Part shown: in pieces, positions 28,529 to 40,452 of the stretch
How positions within the stretch are numbered: the stretch's first letter is position 1
Layout of the letters: each line of letters begins with the position of its first letter
Assembly (NCBI GenBank): GCA_026391695.1
Contig: JAPLDP010000089.1
Coordinates: 5,042 to 69,041, forward strand
Length of the DNA: 64,000 nucleotides
Origin: Bacteroidota bacterium
GTDB taxonomy: Bacteria > Bacteroidota > Bacteroidia > Bacteroidales > JAGONC01
Reading direction: 5' to 3'
The notes under the pieces: generated by a model
What the model was told of the DNA's origin: nothing
What the model saw: the letters and a program-made list of their open reading frames with translations, nothing else
Databases searched by the model: none
Position numbers and translations under genes: made by a program

Positions 28529-31051
28529 ATGATTATATTCAATCTAATACTTTCAACAAAATATCTGAAATATGCCAGGAAAGTGAAAAATCTAATATTT
28601 ATTCTCTGTTTTATATTTTTCGATTTTATCATTGTTCAGGCACAGCGGCCTGGTAATGCCGATTTATCTCAGCGACCCATGGGCGGTGTGATAAAGGGAC
28701 AAGTCATTGAAGCGGACCTTGGTACACTGATGGAATATGTCAATATCGTACTTTTCAGGTCAAAAGATTCTGTTATGGTCTCCGGCACTGTCACTTCCGA
28801 GGATGGAAAATTTGAGCTCCCCCGCGTAACCTTCGGTATCTGCTACATTAAAATCAGCTTTATAGGTTACGACGATAAATTCATGAATGACATCCAGGTT
28901 ACACCTAAACAACCAATCGTGGACCTGGGCAGGATCACTTTAAAGGCGACAGCAACAAATCTTGGTGGTGTTGAAATTGTTGCTGATAAGCAACACGTCG
29001 TTTACCAGATCGACAAAAAAATAATAAACGTCAGCCAGGATCTTATGTCACAGGGTGGTACTGCTATTGAGGCTCTGGAAAACGTGCCCTCGGTGCAGGT
29101 CGACATTGACGGCAACGTAAGCCTGAGAGGCAGCGGCAGCTTTACCCTTCTCATTGATGGCCGCCCCAGTGTCCTCGAAAACAGCGAAGCCCTGCGGCAA
29201 ATACCTGCATCTTCTATCGATCGTATTGAAATTATCACAAATCCGTCTGTTAAATATGATCCCGACGGCACCGCAGGCATCATTAACGTGATCATGAAAA
29301 AAAATATCAAAGCCGGTCTGAACGGAATCCTCAACGCCTCAGTGGGAACAGGTGATAAATATAGCGCCAGCCTTCTTCTGAATTACAGGTTAAAAAAAAT
29401 CAATTTCTTTGGTGGCATCGACTATAATAACTTCCATTCCACCGGAAAAGGCCATTCCACTACTGAAACCTACCTGATTGACACGACGAATTACCGGAAT
29501 ACCGATTCCCAAAGAAAATCAGCGAGAAAGGGCTATAATGTTAAAGGTGGCATAGATTATTTCGTCACTGATAAAAGCACTGTTTCTCTTTCAGGACGAT
29601 ATGGATATTATGGATCTGACATGAATAACTCATCTAACCGCTATATCTATACCCTACCTGTCACGACAGATGATTATTCCTATTCCGACAATGTATCTGA
29701 GAGAAAAGGTAATTTTTACGATGCAACGCTCAACTTCCAGCATAAATTCAAGGAAAATGGCCATACCCTGGAAGCTATGGCATTCTTCTCCAAGCGGATC
29801 GGCGATGACAATGAGACTCAGTCGGACTATACCACCGACCAAAACTGGAATATCATCGATTATAATCCCGATATCAACCGCACCTCCGAAGACGACCATT
29901 CAAATAATTTCAGGTTAAAGGCCGACTATGTAAGGCCTTTGGGCACAGCTGGGAAACTCGAAGCCGGATTTCAGAGCCGTATCGCAAAAGAAAATGCCAC
30001 CTATCTCTTTCAGAATTACGATTATGTGTCAGGATCGTGGATTGATAATCCGATGTATAGCAGCCAGATGGATTTCAGGGAATCCATTCATTCTCTGTAT
30101 GCGATGTTTTCGAGCAAATGGCTTGGCTTTCAGTATCAGCTTGGATTACGCGGCGAATATACTGACAGGCGGATTGAGGACATTCAATCGCCCGATCCCT
30201 ATGTCCTTTCGCTATGGGATTATTTCCCTACCATCCACCTGTCGCGTGAGTTGCCACTGGAACAGCAGTTGATGCTTAGTTACAGCCGCCGTATAAACCG
30301 TCCCCATGGGTGGGATTTGGACCCCTTTCAAAACTATATGGATCCCTATAATATCCGCATGGGAAATCCTGGCTTAAAACCGGAATATATTGATTCATAC
30401 GAACTGGGCTACCAGAAAAAATTCAGCGAATCGTTTGTCGCCCTGGATTCATATTACCGTATCACCAGGAACAAAATGGATGAGGTAACCACATTGCGGT
30501 CCGATGGCATTATGATTCATAAAGATGAAAACCTCAACAAGGATTATTCACTGGGAGCGGAACTGTCAGCAGATCTTGTATTAGCCAAATGGCTTGAGTT
30601 GTTTGGAAGCTTCGATATGTTCCATTACCGTCTGGTCGGAACTCTCAATGATGTGCCGGTCGATAATAAAAGTCTCACTTGGGAAGGACGCTTTAATGTC
30701 ACAGTGAAGCTCAGGGGCGACCTGCGTTTTCAGCTGACAACCCGATATGAAGGACCGCAGGTGGAAGCCCAGGGTACTGAGAAAGGTTCCTTTATGGCTA
30801 ACCTGGCTGTCAGGAAAGACTTCCTGCAAAGGAAACTCTCTGTTTCCTTATCTGCAAGAGACCTTTTTAAAACGGCTAAGCATGAAATGAGCACTAATGG
30901 CGTTGGCTTTTACTCACATGACCGTTTTACCCGTGAAGCCCCCGTTGTTATCCTGACCCTCAGCTATAGGATTAACAACTACAAAAAGGAGCTGGACAAA
31001 CTGGAGAATGGTGAGGATAGACAGGATAGCGGTGAAGAAACAGAGTTCTAA
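28529..31051 (+). CDS. TonB-dependent-type outer-membrane receptor with an N-terminal CarboxypepD_reg domain
   Basis: CarboxypepD_reg-like segment (VIKGQVIEADLGTLMEYVNIVLF...TVTSEDGKFEL). Plug-like segment (TAIEALENVPSVQVDIDGNVSLRGS...IDRIEIITNPS). Long barrel ending in F. The real start may be the in-frame GTG a few codons before KNLIFILCF. Confidence 0.75.
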   Translation: MIIFNLILSTKYLKYARKVKNLIFILCFIFFDFIIVQAQRPGNADLSQRPMGGVIKGQVIEADLGTLMEYVNIVLFRSKDSVMVSGTVTSEDGKFELPRVTFGICYIKISFIGYDDKFMNDIQVTPKQPIVDLGRITLKATATNLGGVEIVADKQHVVYQIDKKIINVSQDLMSQGGTAIEALENVPSVQVDIDGNVSLRGSGSFTLLIDGRPSVLENSEALRQIPASSIDRIEIITNPSVKYDPDGTAGIINVIMKKNIKAGLNGILNASVGTGDKYSASLLLNYRLKKINFFGGIDYNNFHSTGKGHSTTETYLIDTTNYRNTDSQRKSARKGYNVKGGIDYFVTDKSTVSLSGRYGYYGSDMNNSSNRYIYTLPVTTDDYSYSDNVSERKGNFYDATLNFQHKFKENGHTLEAMAFFSKRIGDDNETQSDYTTDQNWNIIDYNPDINRTSEDDHSNNFRLKADYVRPLGTAGKLEAGFQSRIAKENATYLFQNYDYVSGSWIDNPMYSSQMDFRESIHSLYAMFSSKWLGFQYQLGLRGEYTDRRIEDIQSPDPYVLSLWDYFPTIHLSRELPLEQQLMLSYSRRINRPHGWDLDPFQNYMDPYNIRMGNPGLKPEYIDSYELGYQKKFSESFVALDSYYRITRNKMDEVTTLRSDGIMIHKDENLNKDYSLGAELSADLVLAKWLELFGSFDMFHYRLVGTLNDVPVDNKSLTWEGRFNVTVKLRGDLRFQLTTRYEGPQVEAQGTEKGSFMANLAVRKDFLQRKLSVSLSARDLFKTAKHEMSTNGVGFYSHDRFTREAPVVILTLSYRINNYKKELDKLENGEDRQDSGEETEF

Positions 31052-32142
31052 AGTCTCTTTGTCAGGTTCTGAACCACCTCGAACTTATTTAAAAACTGCT
31101 TGGCAATAATGCGCGCCACAGTATAGGCAGGGATTGCCAGTAACATACCGATGATACCGGCAATGCTGCCGGCAAGGAGTATCACAACGAATATCTCCAG
31201 TGGGTGTGCCCGTACGCTGGTTGAGTAAATCCATGGCTGTAATACGATATCATCGATGCCCTTGACAACAATAAATGTTCCGATGATCTTCAGGAAAATG
31301 GGCATAAGTGCCGTATACTCACCGCTGTTCACGCTGGCCGTAATGCCAATCAGTACACCCAGCGCTGCGGCAATAAATGGACCCAAGTATGGAATAACAT
31401 TGATCAGCCCGCCAAAAAAACCGATCAGAAAAGCATTATCCACGCCCAGAATAGTTAAAATTATGGAAAGCATCGCTACCATGCAGATCATTTCAACTGA
31501 GAGCCCTATAAAGTAACGTGACAACAATTCCCGGATGGATCTTAAAGCATTGGAAGTCTGCTCCTTATATTTTGAAGGAGTGAACAGCATCATGCCATTG
31601 TAAAACAGATGATCATCCTTTAAAAAGAAAAACGTCATGAAAACAATGGAAATAATACCGATAAATATCATTCCTGTGAGGCTTAAAATATTGGAAAAAA
31701 GGTTTGAAAAGGTGTTGAGGCTGAAAAAAGATTGTAACTGCCTGTTAAGCAATTCCTCGATAGTCTGATCAGGGGGTAGGATACGGTACCTGATCAGAAT
31801 TTCCTGCAGATTATTTAAAGGCGTTTTGACACTTTCGTGAAGTTGTTCGAGGTTGATACTTGCAATGACATCCAGCTGCCTGACAACTAATGGTATAAAA
31901 AGAATAAAAAAACCGATGATGACAGATAAAATAACAATGAGGGTGATAATAGTGCTGAGCACATGAGGCAGAGTGAACCTGCCAATCTTTATCCTGTCGA
32001 GTATCCTGACAAGAGGCTGGCCGATGAAAGAGAGTATGGCTGAAATAAGTATAAAAGACACAATGGCCGAAAACCGCCAGACAAGAAAAAAAATGACTGC
32101 GATACCTAGGAGAGTGATGATAAGATTAAAAAATCTGTTCAT
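31048..32142 (-). CDS. AI-2E family (PerM/UPF0118) transporter
   Basis: ~8-TM protein with the NVIPYLGPFIAA and HPLEIFVVILLAG pattern typical of UPF0118. Confidence 0.8.
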   Translation of the reverse strand: MNRFFNLIITLLGIAVIFFLVWRFSAIVSFILISAILSFIGQPLVRILDRIKIGRFTLPHVLSTIITLIVILSVIIGFFILFIPLVVRQLDVIASINLEQLHESVKTPLNNLQEILIRYRILPPDQTIEELLNRQLQSFFSLNTFSNLFSNILSLTGMIFIGIISIVFMTFFFLKDDHLFYNGMMLFTPSKYKEQTSNALRSIRELLSRYFIGLSVEMICMVAMLSIILTILGVDNAFLIGFFGGLINVIPYLGPFIAAALGVLIGITASVNSGEYTALMPIFLKIIGTFIVVKGIDDIVLQPWIYSTSVRAHPLEIFVVILLAGSIAGIIGMLLAIPAYTVARIIAKQFLNKFEVVQNLTKRL

Positions 32143-32203: not shown

Positions 32204-32273
32204 CCTCACCCCCTTCACCCCCTCTCAGATCCCCGCGTACGCGGGGACCAAGGAGAGGGGGACGGGGGTGAGG
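32204..32273. repeat. 70-nt GC-rich three-tier hairpin (REP-like element or terminator)
   Basis: Pairings read directly: 32204-32213/32264-32273 (10 bp), 32218-32226/32253-32261 (9 bp), and an inner perfect palindrome ccccgcgtacgcgggg (32231-32246). It starts 4 nt after the stop of the 814-aa gene. Confidence 0.7.
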
Positions 32274-32277
32274 CCAA

Positions 32278-34722
32278 TCAAAATAATTCAGGAAGCTGCA
32301 AGGTAACCTTGAAGGCAAAGTTATCAATGGTTCTGCTAAGTGTATAAGGTCCTAACCGGTAAAAGGTTCCGAGTCCAACTGAAAAAAGCCCTACATCTAA
32401 AAGATGATTGATCAGTAATCCTGTTTCAAAATATCCATCCTCCATCGTTTTATAGTCAATACCATAATGATGGCCAGGATATTTCAGCCATCCGAAACCC
32501 ATGTTAAAAGCGAATGCCGGCTCCGGATTGAAATGGTTGCCGCGGTAAAGGAGTTTACCAAAATCATGCGTGAAATATAAGGCAATATAACGATCAGAAA
32601 GGAATTCATTCAGGTGCATAGTAGCAAAACTGTTTGGGGCAAAGATGGTAAATGCCTGATAACTGCCATTACCCGAATAAAGATCACTGCAGGGAACCGG
32701 CGTGTTCACAAGACCTGCGCTGATCTGTACAGACGGTTTACCGATATATCTGATATAAAATGACTTCTGGATTTTCAAGTCAAACCGGTCGTACGCAAAT
32801 TCTCCTCCAAAAAGATCTTTTAATCCTCTCGTATAATTGAACCATATTATAGGATAATCCGTACCGAGAGATACCCTGGCGCGGGTACTTTTTAAAAACT
32901 TCTCCTTATATGCATAGCGGAATCCTATGGATAGTTGTGTGAAATTGAACTGATTGGTCATATTTACAAGGGATTCACCTGCAATACCATAATAATACCC
33001 ATAACCTGACTTTTTATAAGCTGTACCGAATGACAGGCACATCTTCATGTATTGCAACGCTCGGAATTCAACCGTTGCCTCCTTTACTTCCATCCTGTCC
33101 ATTTTCATCACCAAAAAATCACGGAGATTTTCATATCTGAACTTACGATAATCATCAAAGAACCGTGTTCCGCCACTTTCAGCCACATCGTTAATATATC
33201 GTATGCCGAATTCCAGCTCACGATTGCGGCTCACCAACCAACTGATATCCCCTCCATACTTGGCTGTTTTATCCCTGAATGCATACCCCCAGTAACCACC
33301 AAACTTAATATGACGAGAGACCTGCTGATTGGTATGTGCTCCCAGCCCAAAATAAAAGCCCTCAACGTCGTTGTACCTGAAAAATTTATTGACGTCAATG
33401 TCAAGAAATTTATAAGGTATTTTATTCGTCATGAGTGTCTCTATAGTCTTGGCAATTCTATCGAACTCCATTGCATCTCCGATGCTGTCAATATAACGGT
33501 AAGTTTCTTTGTCCCTAACTGAAAGACTGTCAATGCGATAATCCTTCCAGAATGTCTCCGGCTGTTTGAATGCGATGGGATCTACATCCACTTCAATGCT
33601 GCTGAACTGTCTTTTGATTAAATCCGGATTGAGAAGGATATCGCGGATATAACTCTTCCCTATTCCGACAACATGATAGGAGCTGCTGTCAGCATTCACT
33701 CCCACAAAGTTCAGAATAATATCCGTATTGAGTTGTACTGGGAACCAATGTGAATTATCGGCCAGTTCATACATTTGCTGAATCTTCATACCGATACCAC
33801 GTTCTTCCCTGGCAGGCTCTGCAATGACATTTTCTATGGCCCAGCCGTTCGTATTTATATAGAGAAGCCCTTTGAGTCCGTCAAAATTGGTACTCTTATA
33901 TGGACGGTACGAAATCACATAAGTAGTATCCCGGCTGTTTTCATGAAAAAGAGTATCAGCCAGGTCAAAGAAATATTTATTGATGCTACCCCTGCTTATG
34001 GGATTTACATAGTTCTTATCTGAAATTTTTATGAGTTCCTTGTAAAAAGATGTGGACTGCATCTGGGAAATAAGAAATACAAACATCGGATCTTTAAATC
34101 CTGATACACGTGAAGCGACGACCTTCTCATAATTTCTGTCGGGATACAGGAATTTACGCTCCGAAACGGTTTCCATCAGAAATAAATTCTTCTCCCTGAA
34201 AAACTTCTGTGTTTTGATAAAACCTGAATCAGGACGCAGTGTATCCGGCTTAGAAATAGTATCAACATCAGCAGTAAAGTACATCTTATCATAGGATGTA
34301 TAAGAAAACGACTGCATTTTCTCCGGGTCATTCCTGTCACGGTTATCGATGGCATTGAGGATGATACGGTGTGCAGGATTTATTCCCGGAAAGATTTCCA
34401 CGGCCGCCAGGTCAATGATACCGGGAGTGAGCCGGATTAGAAGAGGCTCAGAATAACCGGTCACTGGAAATGCCAGGGTTTTATAACCGACATAACTAAA
34501 TATCAGTATGCTAATGGGCTGATTATTTGACACTCTGAATTTCCCGTCGATATCGGTCACAGTGCCGCTACGGCTATCGTTGACAACAACATTAACAAAA
34601 GCGAGAGGCTGTCGCGTGGCACTGTCAATGACTTTGCCAGCCAAATTATAGGTCTGGGATGACGTAAGATAGGGAAAGAAAAACGCCGTCAGAAAAATCA
34701 GCTTTCGGAAAGTGATTCTCAT
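32278..34722 (-). CDS. CarboxypepD_reg-domain outer-membrane beta-barrel protein (DUF5686-like)
   Basis: Signal peptide. YNLAGKVIDSATRQPLAFVNVVVNDSRSGTVTDIDGKFRV is CarboxypepD_reg-like. The rest is long and aromatic-rich, and the protein ends ...LQLPELF. The DUF name is from memory. Confidence 0.55.
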   Translation of the reverse strand: MRITFRKLIFLTAFFFPYLTSSQTYNLAGKVIDSATRQPLAFVNVVVNDSRSGTVTDIDGKFRVSNNQPISILIFSYVGYKTLAFPVTGYSEPLLIRLTPGIIDLAAVEIFPGINPAHRIILNAIDNRDRNDPEKMQSFSYTSYDKMYFTADVDTISKPDTLRPDSGFIKTQKFFREKNLFLMETVSERKFLYPDRNYEKVVASRVSGFKDPMFVFLISQMQSTSFYKELIKISDKNYVNPISRGSINKYFFDLADTLFHENSRDTTYVISYRPYKSTNFDGLKGLLYINTNGWAIENVIAEPAREERGIGMKIQQMYELADNSHWFPVQLNTDIILNFVGVNADSSSYHVVGIGKSYIRDILLNPDLIKRQFSSIEVDVDPIAFKQPETFWKDYRIDSLSVRDKETYRYIDSIGDAMEFDRIAKTIETLMTNKIPYKFLDIDVNKFFRYNDVEGFYFGLGAHTNQQVSRHIKFGGYWGYAFRDKTAKYGGDISWLVSRNRELEFGIRYINDVAESGGTRFFDDYRKFRYENLRDFLVMKMDRMEVKEATVEFRALQYMKMCLSFGTAYKKSGYGYYYGIAGESLVNMTNQFNFTQLSIGFRYAYKEKFLKSTRARVSLGTDYPIIWFNYTRGLKDLFGGEFAYDRFDLKIQKSFYIRYIGKPSVQISAGLVNTPVPCSDLYSGNGSYQAFTIFAPNSFATMHLNEFLSDRYIALYFTHDFGKLLYRGNHFNPEPAFAFNMGFGWLKYPGHHYGIDYKTMEDGYFETGLLINHLLDVGLFSVGLGTFYRLGPYTLSRTIDNFAFKVTLQLPELF

Positions 34723-35441
34723 TCCCTTTGTAAACTGTTAGAAATCTGAGTGTAAAAATAGTCTTCGAGTTCCTTCAGGGTGTTCTCATCCTTCACGATA
34801 TCCTTGACAATAATGCCCTTATCGAGGATGATTATACGGTCGCATACCTCGGTTACATGGTTCAGATCATGACTTGATATGAGCATGGTGATGTCGCGCT
34901 GCTTTTTGAGTTCCTTCAGAAGGATCTTTAGTCTGATTTGGGTTGTCGGATCCAGGTTGTTGAAGGGTTCATCCAGTACCAGGATTTCCGGCTCAGCCAT
35001 CAGGGCAGCAGCTATACCAACCTTTTTCTGATTTCCGTGCGACAGGTCACGGATATATTTCTTTTTACCGGTAATCTCTTCATTAAAAAATTCATTGAAA
35101 TTGTTATAAAATTCTGTCATATCACCATCCGACAATCCATTGACTTTGCCGATGAATTCAAAATACTCTTCCGGTGTCAGGAAATCAATGAGAAATCCTT
35201 CATCGAGGTAGGAACCCGTATAAACTTTCCAGGCATCCTCACGCGCGACGTTCCGGCCATTGGATAATACATACCCGTTGTTAGCGCGAATAAGGTCAAG
35301 AACCAACCGGAAGAAGGTTGTTTTCCCTGCCCCGTTATTGCCTACAAGCCCGAAACTCTCCCCTTTCCGGATGACCAGACCGGGTATATTCAGTACGGTC
35401 TCACCATTGTAAACCTTGGTTAAATCTTTTACTTCGATCAT
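34719..35441 (-). CDS. ABC transporter ATP-binding protein (ABC-2/CcmA-like)
   Basis: Walker A GNNGAGKTT, signature LSHGNQKK, Walker B ILVLDEP, H-loop SSHD. ATGA overlap with the downstream OM barrel gene. Confidence 0.85.
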   Translation of the reverse strand: MIEVKDLTKVYNGETVLNIPGLVIRKGESFGLVGNNGAGKTTFFRLVLDLIRANNGYVLSNGRNVAREDAWKVYTGSYLDEGFLIDFLTPEEYFEFIGKVNGLSDGDMTEFYNNFNEFFNEEITGKKKYIRDLSHGNQKKVGIAAALMAEPEILVLDEPFNNLDPTTQIRLKILLKELKKQRDITMLISSHDLNHVTEVCDRIIILDKGIIVKDIVKDENTLKELEDYFYTQISNSLQRE

Positions 35442-35511
35442 AATATGACTATTTAATAATTTTATGAATTCACACTGAAATATTTCATTTAATAAGGATC
35501 AGCATAAGGAT

Positions 35512-36990
35512 CTATTTTTCCCTGAATCCTTCAGCCATGATGTACTTCCGTTTCTCCAGGTTATTGACAATCAGTTTTAATAATGATTTGTGAAAAGCCA
35601 GTCCGGCAACGCCCAGGATGCCTAAAAACAAAATTCCTGCATAAGGGTATCCCGCCAGTCGGAATGGTAGAACCAACAAAACAGGTAAAAGAAAACCCGG
35701 TAAAATGGCCAGCCAGTTCATGGCACTTATACCCTGGTAATTGAAGGCCGATGGCCTCGACAGATCTATCCTCTTCTTATTGAATGTGGCCATGTATAAT
35801 AATATAAATGACAGAAATCCAATATTATACAAATAAAGGGCGAAATTGACAAGTATTATTTTCCAGCCAAAAAAAGCATACGGCAGTGTGACAATAAAAC
35901 ATATTGTACAAAGCATGACCGAGATCATGAATTTGATCCTTATATATTTAATAAAATCTATATTGTTGGTAAGGATAGCATCGAAATAACAACTCTCCCA
36001 TCCGAAAGCATAGTTGATATAACTGAGCATCATGCCGCCTGTCATGAAAAAGCCGACAAATATCAGGAATGCAAAGCCATCGCGATATATTGGCTGGGGA
36101 TAGAAGAAAAGCCCGTAAAGTACAAACAACGGAAAGAGATAGATAATCGTCCTTGTCCGCTTATTACGCCACATCAGCTTTATTTCCAGGGCTATCATTT
36201 CACCGGTCAGGCCCAGCGTTTTAAAATACCGGAGGTTTGTTAAGGCATCTACATTCCCGTCTTTATGCGTCTGTAGTTCTTCAGCAAATAACTTCGCCCT
36301 TAGGAAAGCATAATAATTGACATAAGATAAGATCATCAGGAAGACAGGAATAACAGCCATCACAGGATGGCTGCATAGATAATTAAACATCCGGCCTGAT
36401 AAAGCCGACAATGAAATGACATGAAAGTAATCGAGAGCTATGGCCAAGGCCAGTATCAGTGCTACATACCCGATAATTCCCGGCTTATTGCCGATCTGAC
36501 GTTTCAGATAAGAAGCGAAAAAATTATTGAATAATACCAGGCTTATCACCGATATCAGCCAAATCCAGGAAATGCCTGAGGAATATACCTGGGGAATGAC
36601 CTTAAATGCAAAAGGAATGAAAATAAAAAGAGGCAAGATATTAAAGATGCTGAGTTTGGTTTTTAGCACGGCATAGTGCACGATAGCCGGCTTTTTTACC
36701 GGCATGTGCAGGTAGGCCTCAAATGAAAACGCCGAAAGCTGCTGGATAAAAAAACGGACAACCAGATCTGACAGAAAATAATACAGCAGGATCCCATTGA
36801 ACAGGGTGACAGGATTTTTATCCGGCGCAATGTCACTGAGGATCTTATCGATCAGTATTCCTACCAGGAAAAGCTCAAGGAAAATAATAAACAGGAAGAA
36901 GCCCAGAATGACATTGGTCAATACATTTTTCTGCCAAATCGATGACCTGGTAGCCTGCTTCCACTGATGGCGGATGAACCATTTGAACAT
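35512..36990 (-). CDS. Polytopic (~12 hydrophobic segments) membrane protein, putative ABC permease (DUF5687-like)
   Basis: 492 aa. By eye there are two blocks of ~6 TM segments separated by a charged loop (RAKLFAEELQTHKDGN...WRNKRTRT). The gene sits directly upstream of the ABC ATPase. The DUF name is from memory. Confidence 0.5.
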   Translation of the reverse strand: MFKWFIRHQWKQATRSSIWQKNVLTNVILGFFLFIIFLELFLVGILIDKILSDIAPDKNPVTLFNGILLYYFLSDLVVRFFIQQLSAFSFEAYLHMPVKKPAIVHYAVLKTKLSIFNILPLFIFIPFAFKVIPQVYSSGISWIWLISVISLVLFNNFFASYLKRQIGNKPGIIGYVALILALAIALDYFHVISLSALSGRMFNYLCSHPVMAVIPVFLMILSYVNYYAFLRAKLFAEELQTHKDGNVDALTNLRYFKTLGLTGEMIALEIKLMWRNKRTRTIIYLFPLFVLYGLFFYPQPIYRDGFAFLIFVGFFMTGGMMLSYINYAFGWESCYFDAILTNNIDFIKYIRIKFMISVMLCTICFIVTLPYAFFGWKIILVNFALYLYNIGFLSFILLYMATFNKKRIDLSRPSAFNYQGISAMNWLAILPGFLLPVLLVLPFRLAGYPYAGILFLGILGVAGLAFHKSLLKLIVNNLEKRKYIMAEGFREK

Positions 36991-37071
36991 ACAGATAATA
37001 GTATTAAATGAACAAGGGGATGGTCAACATTAGTTAGGGGAGCAATTTATGACTTTTTTTGGAAATATGGC

Positions 37072-37782
37072 TTATTCTCTTACATCAAGTTTAAATCCTG
37101 TCCCATGAACATTAAGTATGGATATCCTGGGATCGCCTTTAAAGTATTTTCGCAGTTTTGTGATAAATACATCCATACTCCTGCCTATGAAATAATCATC
37201 GTCACCCCAAACCATTATCAATGCCTGTTCGCGGGTAAGGACTTTATTCTTATTGATACACAGCAGTTTTAAAAGGGCTGTTTCCTTTCGTGTGAGTTTT
37301 TTTTCGAAGTTATCACTTTTCAGTAACAGATTGTGGGGATCAAAGGTATATTTCCCGATCGTGAATACTTCTTCACTGTCAGGCATGGAGTTTTCCTTTG
37401 CAGTACAACGGCGGAGGATAGCTTCAATCCGCAGGCTCAGCTCCTCGCTGCTGAAAGGCTTTGTGATATAATCATCGCAACCCGATTTAAAGCCGATAAT
37501 ACGGTCTTCTTTAAGTGCTTTTGCCGTAAGAAAAATAATCGGTACAGCCTCATTTCTTTCCCTGATTTCATTTGCAAGGGTGAAACCGTCCTTTTTAGGC
37601 ATCATCACATCGAGAATGCAAAGATCAATCTTATGAGCCCGGAATGATATATATCCTTCTTCACCATCTCTGGCCAGAACTGTTGAATATCCGAGCATCT
37701 CAAGATAATCTCCGAGGACAGTGCTCAGGTTGGGATCATCCTCAACAAGCAATATACGAATCCCTGACTTATTATTCTTCAT
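37072..37782 (-). CDS. OmpR-family response regulator (receiver + winged-helix)
   Basis: ILLVEDDPNL, DLCILDVMMPKKDG, FLTAK, and a C-terminal LTRKETALLKLL...YFIGRSMDVFITKLRKY. Confidence 0.9.
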   Translation of the reverse strand: MKNNKSGIRILLVEDDPNLSTVLGDYLEMLGYSTVLARDGEEGYISFRAHKIDLCILDVMMPKKDGFTLANEIRERNEAVPIIFLTAKALKEDRIIGFKSGCDDYITKPFSSEELSLRIEAILRRCTAKENSMPDSEEVFTIGKYTFDPHNLLLKSDNFEKKLTRKETALLKLLCINKNKVLTREQALIMVWGDDDYFIGRSMDVFITKLRKYFKGDPRISILNVHGTGFKLDVRE

Positions 37783-39079
37783 CCTGACCTGGTTTTTCGT
37801 TTATGTGGTTAAACGGAAAATAAAGATCGAACCGGCTGCCCTTTCCAATTTCACTTTTCAGGTCAACGCGGCCTCCATGGGCTTCCACCATCGTCTTCAC
37901 ATAATATAATCCAAGACCGAAGCCTTTTACGTCATGAATGTTCCCTGTAGGTACCCGGTAGAACCGCTTGAAAATATTTTTCTGGTTCTCAGCCATGATA
38001 CCAATCCCCTTGTCTTCAACAGATATTAAAATACCATTATTGACGTTACATGTCGATATCGAAATATATGGCGATTCCGGAGAATACTTGTTCGCATTAT
38101 CAATGACATTGTTTATGATATTGATGAAATGGATGCGGTCAGCCATGAGGACGTATTTGGAGGCCTCCAGGTCCATTCTGATCTTACCTTTCCGTTCCTT
38201 CATCACCAGGCAGAGATTCTTGACAATGCTTTGTATCGTTTTATGAACGTCTATCTCTCTGAACTTTAACTTAAAATCACTCTTGTCAAGAACGGCAATG
38301 TTCAGAACCTGCTCCACCTGGTTTTTTAGACGCAGGTTCTCATCAAAAATGACATGAGCATACCTCCTGGTTTTGTCAGGATACTGAATCACTTCAGGCT
38401 TTAAAAGCATTTCACTGGCCAGCGAGATCGTTGATATCGGGGTTTTAAATTCATGTGTCATGTTATTCACAAAATCCGATTTCATCTGCGATAATTTCTT
38501 CTGCCTGAATAACGAAAAAATCGAAAAAGAAAAGGCAAAAACTAATATAATCAGGAAAACGATCGATAAAATTAACCAGGGAATAATTCTGCTGAGAATC
38601 AATCCACGCTGGTTGAAAAAATAAATCCCAAGTAAATAATTACCTCCTTTGCACACACAGGCCAGAGATACCACATGAGATGTGCTGATGATTTCATCAG
38701 TATAATTCTCATATGTTCCCATGATGAAATTACCCGTTGAATACTGAAACACGCCATAGACATAATCCTTACCAATCATCATTGTACAGAATTCATCCTT
38801 GATCAGGGAATCCAGTAATGGGGCGTCGACAACATCATATATATTTGCACGTCCGGGGAAACAGGCAGGGAGATCTGAATTGATGTTGGCTTGCTCCGTT
38901 ATCTGCTTATGGCTGAGAAGCTGGGCGACAACACTTTTCAATGAAATGATCACCCGGCTGTTAAATTGTTCCTCCTTCAGCTTATAGGCATTGTCAATCC
39001 AGAACAACTGCGTGATGATCACTCCAATAAGGGAAACAGAAGCAACAAGTATAATGACCAGTATTGTTCTCTTTTTCAT
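37772..39079 (-). CDS. Sensor histidine kinase (2 TM, extracytoplasmic sensor, HisKA + HATPase_c, no HAMP)
   Basis: H-box MTHEFKTP, N-box IDNANKYS, G1 DKGIGI, G2 GFGLGL. Two TM segments flank a ~140-aa domain. Overlaps the RR gene by 11 nt. Confidence 0.9.
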   Translation of the reverse strand: MKKRTILVIILVASVSLIGVIITQLFWIDNAYKLKEEQFNSRVIISLKSVVAQLLSHKQITEQANINSDLPACFPGRANIYDVVDAPLLDSLIKDEFCTMMIGKDYVYGVFQYSTGNFIMGTYENYTDEIISTSHVVSLACVCKGGNYLLGIYFFNQRGLILSRIIPWLILSIVFLIILVFAFSFSIFSLFRQKKLSQMKSDFVNNMTHEFKTPISTISLASEMLLKPEVIQYPDKTRRYAHVIFDENLRLKNQVEQVLNIAVLDKSDFKLKFREIDVHKTIQSIVKNLCLVMKERKGKIRMDLEASKYVLMADRIHFINIINNVIDNANKYSPESPYISISTCNVNNGILISVEDKGIGIMAENQKNIFKRFYRVPTGNIHDVKGFGLGLYYVKTMVEAHGGRVDLKSEIGKGSRFDLYFPFNHINEKPGQDEE

Positions 39080-39178
39080 GCACCAAAATTACGGCTAATG
39101 ATCAGTGAATAAGAGTTATTTAACAAATTTTTAACAGTATTTAACGCTTTATTAACACAGGTGTATTCAAACCTTTGC

Positions 39179-39234: not shown

Positions 39235-39573
39235 ATGAAAAAACTTTTGATCAGTTTAACCTTAGCCGCCTTCTTGACATCAGGAATAGTTGGTGTATAC
39301 AAGGCAGAAGCTCAGTCAACACCTCAGAAACCCAAGACTGAAAAGATTCAGACTGAAAAGGATGCAAAACAGGTAACAAATCAACAGGCACCCGCTGCTC
39401 CCCAGGGAACAGCCACCCCAACAACAAACGATGCTATCAAAACCTCCACTGGCGTAAAAGGTTGCCCGATGCAGAAAAGCTGCGAACCAAAAGCTGGTTG
39501 CTGCCCAAAAACTAAAAGCTGTTGTCCAAAAGATAAAACCGGTTGTGTATCGAAAAATCCTGGCAAGAAATAA
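39235..39573 (+). CDS. Secreted low-complexity protein with a Cys-rich C-terminal tail
   Basis: Signal peptide MKKLLISLTLAAFLTSGIVGVYKAEA|Q, then a Q/P/T/K-rich linker. The tail GCPMQKSCEPKAGCCPKTKSCCPKDKTGC has 7 Cys and a tandem CCPKxKx unit. The gene is flanked by its own -7 box and a canonical terminator. Confidence 0.7.
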   Translation: MKKLLISLTLAAFLTSGIVGVYKAEAQSTPQKPKTEKIQTEKDAKQVTNQQAPAAPQGTATPTTNDAIKTSTGVKGCPMQKSCEPKAGCCPKTKSCCPKDKTGCVSKNPGKK

Positions 39574-39597: not shown

Positions 39598-39628
39598 ACC
39601 CCGGCATTCACCGGGGTTTTTTATTTTT
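39598..39628 (+). terminator. Rho-independent terminator (accccgg-cattca-ccggggt + ttttttattttt)
   Basis: 7-bp GC-rich stem, 6-nt loop and a T-tract, 24 nt after the stop at 39573. Confidence 0.8.
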
Positions 39629-39658: not shown

Positions 39659-40063
39659 ATGATCACAGTTGAGACTATTTACGAAGGAAATTTAAGGACA
39701 AGGGCTAAACATACCCTGTCGGGTGAGATAATAATTACCGACGCTCCTGTTGACAACCAGGGCAAAGGCGAAGCATTTTCACCAACAGACTTGCTGGCTG
39801 CTGCACTTGGCAGTTGTATGCTGACCATTATCGGCATTGCTGCCAGCAGATATAACTTCTCCATTGACGGAACACAAATTTCCATTACAAAAATTATGGC
39901 CACAAATCCCAGAAGAGTCGGCGAAGTCATCATTGATTTCCATTTCCCGGATAACGGCTATTCCGAAAAAAATAAAACCATCATCAGGAATGCTGCTTTA
40001 AAATGTCCTGTTTCCCTGAGCCTTCATCCTGATGTCAGGCAAACTATAAATTTTAATTTTTGA
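39659..40063 (+). CDS. OsmC family peroxiredoxin-like protein
   Basis: GKGEAFSPTDLLAAALGSCM and KCPVS motifs of OsmC/Ohr. 134 aa. Confidence 0.8.
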   Translation: MITVETIYEGNLRTRAKHTLSGEIIITDAPVDNQGKGEAFSPTDLLAAALGSCMLTIIGIAASRYNFSIDGTQISITKIMATNPRRVGEVIIDFHFPDNGYSEKNKTIIRNAALKCPVSLSLHPDVRQTINFNF

Positions 40064-40452
40064 CAGCCATGGAATTACATATTCCACTTGGTGCCAAAAG
40101 AAAACAGCACGTTACTGTCAGGATGAAGGATACTGCATTCCGCTATGGATCAGGGCTTGTTGACGTCTACGCTACACCGGCAATGATCGCATTAATGGAA
40201 AATACTGCCCAGCTAAGTGTGAAACCCTATCTCCCCGAGGGTCATATAACCGTCGGAACAGCCATCGATATCAGGCATCATAAAGCAACTCCCGTTGGTA
40301 TGAAAGTAACCTGTGAATCGGTACTAACGGCGGTGGAAGGGAAAAAACTAACTTTCAGCGTCACCGCCTGGGATGAGAAAGGGCTTATCGGATCCGGAAG
40401 CCATTCACGATATATTGTTAATACTGAAGAATTTCTCAACAGACTCAGATGA
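40060..40452 (+). CDS. Hotdog-fold thioesterase (FlK/COG5496-like)
   Basis: 130 aa. VDVYATPAMIALMENTA...GTAIDIRHHKATPVGMKV pattern. ATGA overlaps on both sides. Confidence 0.6.
   Translation: MTAMELHIPLGAKRKQHVTVRMKDTAFRYGSGLVDVYATPAMIALMENTAQLSVKPYLPEGHITVGTAIDIRHHKATPVGMKVTCESVLTAVEGKKLTFSVTAWDEKGLIGSGSHSRYIVNTEEFLNRLR

Follow-up and report, generated by a model that had tools for sequence, protein, structure and literature searches.

A DUF5687-ATPase pair, a DUF5686 outer-membrane protein and a two-component system as probably separable neighbours in one Bacteroidales lineage

The gene cluster analyzed here consists of five co-directional genes on the minus strand (32278-39079) of a 64,000-nucleotide stretch of DNA, called the window below, from a Bacteroidota bacterium of the order Bacteroidales (GenBank assembly GCA_026391695.1, contig JAPLDP010000089.1, positions 5,042 to 69,041). 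It encodes a sensor histidine kinase (HK), a response regulator (RR), a DUF5687 protein with 12 transmembrane (TM) helices, an ATP-binding cassette (ABC) ATPase and a DUF5686 outer-membrane protein. A first-pass annotation, made from the sequence alone, had proposed that the last three form an export or insertion pathway from the inner to the outer membrane, possibly controlled by the adjacent two-component system. A conserved export module of the envelope that works without an adaptor and is controlled by a two-component system is not supported by the comparative analysis. The cluster probably comprises three functionally separable units that are neighbours in one lineage of Bacteroidales: a self-sufficient ABC exporter, an independent DUF5686 protein and an autoregulated two-component system.

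The open reading frames and their translations agreed with the first reading in coordinates, overlaps and gaps. The HK gene (37772-39079; 435 amino acids, aa) overlaps the RR gene (37072-37782; 236 aa) by 11 nt. The RR gene is separated by 81 nt from the DUF5687 gene (35512-36990; 492 aa), and this by 70 nt from the ATPase gene (34719-35441; 240 aa), whose stop codon meets the start codon of the DUF5686 gene (32278-34722; 814 aa) in a 4-nt ATGA overlap. Also the ATPase motifs and the LQLPELF ending of the DUF5686 protein were present as first read. The three protein families named in the first-pass annotation were recovered in the Pfam hidden Markov model search: PF18940 (DUF5687) over the full length of the protein with an E-value of 1e-139, PF00005 (ABC_tran) with 8e-21, and in the outer-membrane protein CarbopepD_reg_2 with 8e-15 followed by DUF5686 with 3e-41.

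Gene linkage around the DUF5687-ATPase pair

Linkage was scored in 80 genome loci with DUF5687 relatives (45-70% identity) and in eight distant DUF5687 loci, from Pedobacter gandavensis, Chitinophagaceae-like and other contigs (24-31% identity). For the reverse direction, 52 metagenome loci with a full-length DUF5686 gene (31-52% identity) were searched within +/-10 kb. The closest relatives of the window were metagenome-assembled genomes (MAGs) of Lentimicrobiaceae/Bacteroidales.

An orthologous ATPase gene was found directly 3' of DUF5687 in 72 of the 73 related loci whose downstream sequence was long enough. Also in seven of the eight distant loci, including that of Pedobacter gandavensis, the ATPase gene lies directly downstream of DUF5687, with the two genes overlapping or 4-70 nt apart. 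DUF5687 and the ATPase are the only obligate unit of the cluster.

The linkage of DUF5686 to this pair was much looser. DUF5686 was present on the same strand and at most 3 kb downstream of the pair in 35 of 57 loci, and none of the eight distant DUF5687 genes had a DUF5686 gene within 8 kb. In the reverse sample, DUF5687 was found within +/-10 kb of DUF5686 in six of the 52 loci, and in four of the 36 that had at least 3 kb of upstream sequence. The neighbour-joining tree of 93 DUF5686 proteins placed all the linked genes in one crown clade, where unlinked genes were interspersed among them, and the deeper branches were all unlinked. Since the linked genes are confined to a single crown clade, the deep branches are unlinked and the distant loci show no linkage, the linkage is a derived, lineage-restricted arrangement with repeated loss and not a property of either family. 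The trio is largely not syntenic across relatives, and the inner-to-outer-membrane system first proposed is not supported by the comparison; within the window's own clade, the ATGA overlap and the short spacers allow a local operon.

The genes belong to a conserved housekeeping block with the order PriA-PFK-RlmL (opposite strand), MazG, the DUF5687-ABC pair, CHAD, DUF5686, AI-2E and frr-pyrH; the housekeeping labels were read from the sequences, and of these only AI-2E is backed by Pfam. Many unlinked DUF5686 loci retain the RlmL/PFK/PriA, MazG, CHAD and AI-2E surroundings, and an AI-2E gene follows DUF5686 in many loci, with or without the ABC pair. The unrelated RlmL-like gene belongs to the neighbourhood in 43 of 81 loci, approximately as often as DUF5686. 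An opposite-strand CHAD-like gene stands directly after the ATPase gene in 14 loci, six of which have DUF5686 as the next gene, and in one locus (L035) a toxin-antitoxin-like MNT/HEPN pair lies between the ATPase and DUF5686 genes; both labels are from sequence motifs only, not from a family-library search. In locus L002, where DUF5687 is 58% identical to that of the window, the order HK-RR-DUF5687-ABC is kept and both DUF5686 and AI-2E are absent.

Three observations weigh against treating DUF5686 as separate from the pair, together with one property of the scoring. The ATGA overlap (-4 nt) between the ATPase and DUF5686 genes is found in the window and in its closest relatives L001 and L003-L005. 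About 18 other loci have a spacer of 4-35 nt, and such tight spacing is typical of operons for interacting proteins. The order DUF5687-ABC-DUF5686 is also intact despite changed flanks in L026, L043, L047, L049, L053 and L060. Furthermore, the absence of a partner was scored within +/-10 kb only, which is not proof of absence from the genome. A clade-specific functional link of the pair and DUF5686 is possible.

In its fullest form such a link would be a trio restricted to this clade, in which the exporter extracts a lipidic or glycan cargo from the inner membrane, the periplasmic part of DUF5686 (about 400 aa, comprising the N-terminal extension and the middle domain) takes it over directly in place of an adaptor, and an Omp85-like barrel carries out its insertion into, or release at, the outer membrane. 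It would agree with the ATGA overlap, with the spacers of 4-35 nt in most cases of directly adjacent ATPase and DUF5686 genes and with the persistence of the trio in several loci with altered flanking genes, as well as with the size of the DUF5686 periplasmic region, to which no fold is assigned, and with the resemblance of the ATPase to the nucleotide-binding domains (NBDs) of ABCA lipid transporters. However, the linkage is missing in 22 of 57 pair loci, 32 of 36 DUF5686 loci and all eight distant pair loci, opposite-strand genes follow the ATPase in 14 loci, and DUF5686 is no more conserved as a neighbour than the unrelated RlmL. The DUF5687 protein moreover has almost no periplasmic surface (a TM7-TM8 loop of 9 residues), and DUF5686 has a TonB-type coupling motif of its own. 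The trio is considered rather unlikely, and what probability it retains is due to the translational coupling and to its being kept in some loci with changed flanks.

The known envelope-spanning machines MacAB-TolC, HlyBD-TolC and the Lpt bridge likewise combine an ABC ATPase and an outer-membrane protein in one co-directional cluster. Unlike these, the cluster of the window has no membrane-fusion adaptor, TolC-type channel, FtsX/type IV permease or beta-jellyroll bridge, and its inner- and outer-membrane genes are not conserved together (35/57, 4/36 and 0/8 loci in the three samples). The Pfam and NCBIfam scan of eight proteins, those of the cluster and its immediate neighbours, found neither a HlyD-type or membrane fusion protein (MFP)-type adaptor nor a TolC-type channel, in agreement with the first-pass annotation, which had seen no MacA/HlyD-type adaptor in the cluster.

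The DUF5687-ATPase pair as a probable ABC exporter

The AlphaFold2 model of the DUF5687 protein (pLDDT 76, pTM 0.69) was all-helical with about 6+6 TM helices, and hydropathy agreed with it; the approximately 12 hydrophobic segments in two blocks noted at first sight are recovered as TM helices. When this model was compared with the PDB using Foldseek, the only confident matches were the A chains of 8K1O, 8K1P and 8K1N (Rv1217c), with probabilities of 0.96-1.0. All other matches had a probability of at most 0.41, the best of them being NosY, an ABC-2 permease. Entries 8K1N and 8K1O represent the type V exporter Rv1217c-Rv1218c, in which both transmembrane domains (TMDs) are fused in a single polypeptide and the NBDs form a homodimer (PMC11406275); the PDB description of 8K1P is identical to theirs.

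The translated ATPase contains the Walker A (GNNGAGKTT), signature (LSHGNQKK), Walker B (ILVLDEP) and H-loop (SSHD) motifs. Its nearest solved sequences were the NBDs of ABCA7, ABCA3, ABCA1 and ABCA4, with E-values from 3e-36 to 1e-31. The nearest NCBIfam models were those of the lantibiotic-protection, GldA and DrrA subfamilies. Each score fell well short of its cut-off, the best one, for the lantibiotic-protection ABC subfamily, being 128 bits against 310. The pairing of the ATPase with a 12-TM ABC-2-like permease, as proposed earlier, is supported by both the Rv1217c fold match and the ABCA-type NBD.

The Mycobacterium tuberculosis exporter Rv1217c-Rv1218c resembles the pair in several respects: one chain carries both 6-TM domains, a separate and adjacent gene encodes the NBD, and the NBD signature is non-canonical, ending in GN (YSKGN there, LSHGN here). 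It differs from DUF5687 in the lack of detectable sequence similarity, in the low TM-score (0.36-0.40) and in its host, which belongs to another phylum with another envelope, and further in that some DUF5687 relatives have a periplasmic insert of the CBM_20 family.

The assignment to type V exporters is weakened by three results. The fold match to Rv1217c is weak in absolute terms (E-value approximately 0.03, TMq 0.36-0.40), none of the 30 DUF5687 members matched the ABC2_membrane families even at an E-value of 1 or below, and the DUF5687 profile had no match among PDB sequences at E-values up to 10. Taken together, the NBD motifs, the NBD class, the 6+6 TM fold of the model and the conserved pairing of TMD and NBD genes are those of a type V exporter; at the sequence level, neither the Pfam ABC-2 families nor the solved type V TMDs gave a match.

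The two genes are consistently paired, and their products have the architecture of an ABC exporter. A single DUF5687 chain, contributing both membrane domains, and a homodimer of the ATPase would together form a self-sufficient inner-membrane exporter or flippase of type V (ABC-2/ABCA fold). By analogy with Rv1217c-Rv1218c, the ATP-driven closing of the two halves would expel the substrate to the periplasmic side. The substrate would be hydrophobic, amphipathic or possibly glycan-linked, and would be taken from the inner membrane or the cytoplasm. Judging from the model and the positive-inside rule, the conserved DUF5687 loops at approximately 83-99 and 326-345 are probably cytoplasmic, where the coupling helices would sit. 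The predicted TM7-TM8 loop would be periplasmic and only about 9 residues long, leaving the window protein with almost no periplasmic mass.

An internal duplication of DUF5687 was also considered and rejected, as the N- and C-terminal halves were not significantly similar in hhalign (probability 0.4). The only match in the alignment of the halves was a short one, ATYxKRQ with ATYNKKR, at equivalent cytoplasmic loops.

The DUF5687 family comprised 1,751 representative clusters at an E-value of 1e-3 or below. Some relatives of approximately 620 aa (P0269 and P0321) contain an insert of the starch-binding type CBM_20, which scored 35.7 bits against a cut-off of 23.3. The insert is the sole hint to substrate chemistry, and it hints that the family may handle glycan-related substrates. 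It is situated exactly at the predicted periplasmic TM7-TM8 loop, a position corresponding to that of the second extracellular domain (ECD2) in ABCA transporters, and about 15 further DUF5687 representatives are also approximately 620 aa long. In one distant DUF5687-ABC locus (L165, 10259-12130), the ATPase gene is directly followed by genes for a LytS-type kinase and a response regulator of the LytTR type, and next after the regulator is a pullulanase-like gene with CBM_48 and alpha-amylase domains; the two-component family differs from that of the window. No mention of DUF5687 was found in the literature searched.

Predicted architecture of the DUF5686 outer-membrane protein

In the AlphaFold2 model of the DUF5686 protein (pLDDT 82), which was based on a shallow multiple sequence alignment of 36 sequences, a signal peptide is followed by a beta-sandwich (25-98), a disordered linker (104-112), an alpha/beta domain (116-380), helices (389-432) and a C-terminal barrel of approximately 16 strands (434-809). 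In terms of domains, the order is an N-terminal extension (NTE) of the SusC type at 25-98, a TonB-box-like linker at about 101-112, a middle alpha/beta domain at 116-432 and the barrel. The 50 best Foldseek matches in the PDB were all BamA or Sam50 barrels, with E-values down to 9e-9, a probability of 1.0 and TMt values of 0.55-0.60, which are normalised to barrel-only targets. Neither TonB-dependent transporters (TBDTs) nor porins were among these 50. The outer-membrane barrel that the first reading had expected is thus borne out by the fold matches of the model.

The N-terminus is clearly homologous to that of SusC/RagA proteins, the profile alignment (E-value 9e-14; 8aa4_A, 6sli_B and 5t3r_D) extending through the TonB box, where the DUF5686 consensus ELsEVvIL aligns with VLDEVVVV, VLEQVVVL and MVDEVVVT. 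In Bt1763, deletion or mutation of the VDEVVV TonB box, or deletion of the NTE, abolishes function (PMC7782687). Because DUF5686 has the SusC-type NTE and the TonB-box-like segment, its inner-membrane link would likely be TonB-ExbBD and not the ABC exporter. DUF5686 is read as an independent, widespread outer-membrane protein of Bacteroidota.

At the level of sequence families, none of the 36 DUF5686 members matched POTRA, Omp85 (PF01103), Plug (PF07715) or the TBDT barrel (PF00593). The longest and most conserved loop of the barrel (673-710) lies between strands 11 and 12, the position of loop L6 in Omp85 proteins. The best local hhalign match (probability 0.1) placed the DUF5686 motif PYxNLYNGNGS-YRxF on the BamA L6 stretch PFYENFYAGGSS, directly before VRGF, the two stretches occupying equivalent places in their barrels. 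The arginine of this region varies in DUF5686 (R/H/Q), and the L6-like alignment with BamA is suggestive only. The ending that had been taken as typical of outer-membrane barrels was found to belong to a conserved, beta-signal-like C-terminal strand, (K/R)xSxxFP(F/L); the terminal phenylalanine itself is present in only 12 of the 36 homologues.

Compared with the Omp85 superfamily (BamA, TamA/TamL, Sam50 and the 'noNterm' Omp85 proteins), DUF5686 shares a 16-strand barrel of the BamA type, by prediction only, which superposes on BamA and Sam50, a conserved loop at the L6 position and a beta-signal-like C-terminal strand. It differs in lacking POTRA domains, a sequence match to PF01103 or BamA and a conserved L6 arginine, and in having at its N-terminus a SusC-type NTE, a TonB-box-like segment and a middle domain of about 320 aa. 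With the SusC/RagA-type TBDTs of Bacteroidota it shares the homologous NTE (PF13715) and the following TonB-box segment, and it differs from them in the absence of a plug, of a 22-strand barrel and of an adjacent gene for a SusD-like partner. On the basis of domain homology and the predicted fold, DUF5686 looks like a hybrid, composed of a TBDT-type periplasmic N-terminus, a middle domain and an Omp85-like barrel.

Two results weaken this assignment, as the alignment of DUF5686 with the Escherichia coli BamA barrel was not significant in hhalign (probability 0.1) and the TonB-box-like motif of the window protein itself is degenerate (DLAAVEIF). Instead, the protein could be a very divergent TonB-dependent importer with a plug and a 22-strand barrel, and the Omp85-like barrel an artefact of the prediction. 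This reading is favoured by the alignment of the NTE and the TonB box with SusC/RagA, by the roughly 700 residues beyond the TonB box, a length comparable to that of a plug plus barrel, and by the shallow alignment of 36 sequences used for the model. On the other hand, Plug and TonB_dep_Rec_b-barrel matched none of the 36 members even at E-values up to 1, all of the 50 best fold matches were BamA or Sam50 and none a TBDT, and the conserved loop linking strand 11 to strand 12 aligned locally to the region of the BamA L6 motif. This makes the importer highly improbable, and the hybrid with an Omp85-like barrel is the preferred reading.

The only mention of DUF5686 found in the literature searched was the detection of a Tannerella forsythia DUF5686 protein in an outer-membrane vesicle proteome (PMC10682907), and no description of a hybrid architecture with an Omp85-like barrel, no POTRA and a SusC-type NTE with TonB box was found there. 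DUF5686 may represent a previously unrecognised hybrid class of outer-membrane proteins that act as TonB-energised, Omp85-like insertases or translocases, and in the clade of the window the translationally coupled type V exporter could supply it with lipid- or glycan-linked cargo. As a whole, this extension of the hybrid reading is speculative and should be regarded as doubtful.

In three metagenome loci (L120, L121 and L127), two DUF5686 paralogues lie near-tandem with one opposite-strand gene between them. The members of these pairs are on very different branches of the tree, which indicates an old duplication with both copies kept.

The two-component system, transcription and neighbouring genes

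In the HK, two TM segments enclose a periplasmic domain of approximately 130 aa and precede the HisKA and HATPase_c domains, and the OmpR-family RR has the Response_reg and Trans_reg_C domains (Pfam). The RR is closest to RprY, its score for NF051850 (295.2 bits) being below the equivalog cut-off of 370. The system resembles RprX/RprY of Bacteroides and Porphyromonas in this best NCBIfam match and in the order of the HK and RR genes, which overlap, and differs in that the RR stays under the equivalog cut-off (295 vs 370 bits).

An RR gene was located directly upstream of DUF5687 in only five of 65 loci, which are the closest relatives of the window (L001-L005). Orthologous HK and RR genes were also found in L092 and L093 before MazG/CHAD/DUF5686, with no ABC pair (HK 46-47% identity over the full length, RR 59%). 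L125 has an orthologous HK (49%, full length) in the same context, again with no ABC pair, and no RR match was found there.

Four GTTAA direct repeats with a spacing of 10-11 bp (39120-39156, minus strand) precede the HK gene and are candidate boxes for the OmpR-family RR. Just 5' of the HK start codon, the motif scan found TAATTTTG (39084-39091, minus strand), a Bacteroidota -7-type promoter motif, which is suggestive only, as TAnnTTTG occurs in the window at chance level (50 observed vs 49.5 expected). The pattern GTTAA-N6-GTTAA occurs in the 64-kb window only upstream of HK (chance expectation 0.11; for the triple pattern 0.00). In L001-L004, L092 and L093 the boxes are at -56/-45 relative to the called HK start; L005 also has them upstream of HK, with a different start call. 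The HK-upstream boxes of L001-L005, L092 and L093 contribute seven of the 14 instances of the pattern among 2.55 Mb of locus sequence. Motifs like TAATTTTG are found at the same place in L001-L004 and L092/L093. The GTTAA repeats followed by TAATTTTG have the look of an autoregulated OmpR-family promoter, and from their conservation the repeats may be boxes of the RR. No GTTAA-N6-GTTAA boxes were found ahead of DUF5687, ATPase or DUF5686 in the scans of the window and the loci, and no motifs beyond chance were common to the HK upstream region and the RR-DUF5687 gap. With the adjacency limited to five of 65 loci, orthologues present where the pair is not and the boxes confined to the HK promoter, the suggested control of the trio by the two-component system was not borne out. 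The RprXY-like system would be an autoregulated unit of its own, which reaches the downstream genes only by read-through in this lineage.

Within the window the five genes are probably co-transcribed from the HK promoter, because they overlap or are separated by gaps that contain neither a terminator-like site nor a consensus promoter; this was the case for both the 81-nt and the 70-nt gap. The scan for sigma-70-like sites was uninformative (27 in the window vs 23 expected). An effect of the RR on the downstream genes may arise by such read-through, and it would then reflect a local accident of gene order, not conserved regulation.

The two-component system and the ABC pair could also be read together as a sensing and resistance module against an envelope-active compound, similar to LanFEG/LanRK or BceRS/BceAB, with DUF5686 as a bystander. 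The best NCBIfam match of the ATPase, the lantibiotic-protection ABC subfamily (128 bits), the co-directional position of the two-component genes directly upstream with gaps devoid of terminator-like sites, and the LytS/LytTR system adjoining the pair in one distant locus would fit such a module. The adjacency that characterises Bce/Lan-type systems is, however, not conserved (5/65), and the same two-component system is found without the pair. The GTTAA boxes are missing ahead of DUF5687, and the lantibiotic-protection score is far from its cut-off (128 vs 310). The permease is not of the FtsX type and has no sensing ectodomain, and the HK, with a periplasmic domain of its own (about 130 aa), is therefore not an intramembrane-sensing kinase. 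A resistance module of this kind is improbable, and the two-component system is better read as separate from the exporter.

A more consistent partner of the two-component system than the transporter is the divergent gene on the plus strand (39235-39573) for a secreted, Lys/Pro/Thr-rich protein of 112 aa with a Cys-rich tail (7 Cys). It shares the intergenic region with the GTTAA repeats with HK, an arrangement present also in L001-L005, and the protein had no Pfam or NCBIfam match. It could be among the targets of the two-component system, or else a periplasmic protein with a metal- or redox-related role. Near this gene, at 39598-39617, there is a hairpin that resembles a terminator.

Further along the plus strand, the interval from the two-component unit to the RlmL-like gene contains two small conserved genes (39659-40452), whose products are 134 and 130 aa long. 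They were read from sequence as OsmC-like and thioesterase-like, and they accompany the two-component system in L001-L005 (clusters c31 and c28).

At the other end of the cluster, the GC-rich hairpin that was first taken to close the unit is indeed present as a very stable nested palindrome (32204-32273; dG -65.7 kcal/mol, z -8.6) between the DUF5686 gene and the gene for an AI-2E family transporter (31048-32142, minus strand; PF01594, E-value 7.5e-45). As a dedicated feature of the gene set it was rejected, since similar palindromes occur at unrelated intergenic sites in other Bacteroidales MAGs. The family has the form CCTCACCCCC..CCCCCTCTCC-loop-GGAGAGGGGG..GGGGGTGAGG, and members were found, besides the window copy, at L080 11516-11570, L057 approximately 770-815, L078 approximately 2421-2460 and L083 approximately 300-345; the L080 copy lies between the DUF5687 and ATPase genes. 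These dispersed palindromes look REP- or MITE-like (repetitive extragenic palindromic or miniature inverted-repeat transposable elements). The Rfam search with the window palindrome gave no credible family, only miRNA families far below their gathering scores. The window copy may act as a terminator or RNA stabiliser.

On the plus strand beyond these (28529-31051), an 840-aa TonB-dependent-receptor-like protein with CarboxypepD_reg, Plug and OMP_b-brl_3 is encoded, and the 3' end of its gene overlaps the AI-2E gene convergently. It formed a singleton cluster, present only in the window among the loci compared, and was probably inserted into the conserved block in this lineage only.

The gene families of the cluster already have DUF entries, and the ABC pair belongs to a known kind of exporter. 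The analysis gives two large Bacteroidota families concrete, testable assignments: DUF5687 as a fused type V membrane domain, and DUF5686 as an Omp85-like barrel with a TonB-box N-terminus. The operon-like order of the window is lineage-specific, and its annotation as a conserved system that spans the envelope is to be avoided. A genuine DUF5686 hybrid would mean that an Omp85-type protein is energised in an unusual manner, and a TonB-energised insertase or translocase of this kind, if true, would be a candidate for unsolved steps of outer-membrane and surface biogenesis in Bacteroidota.

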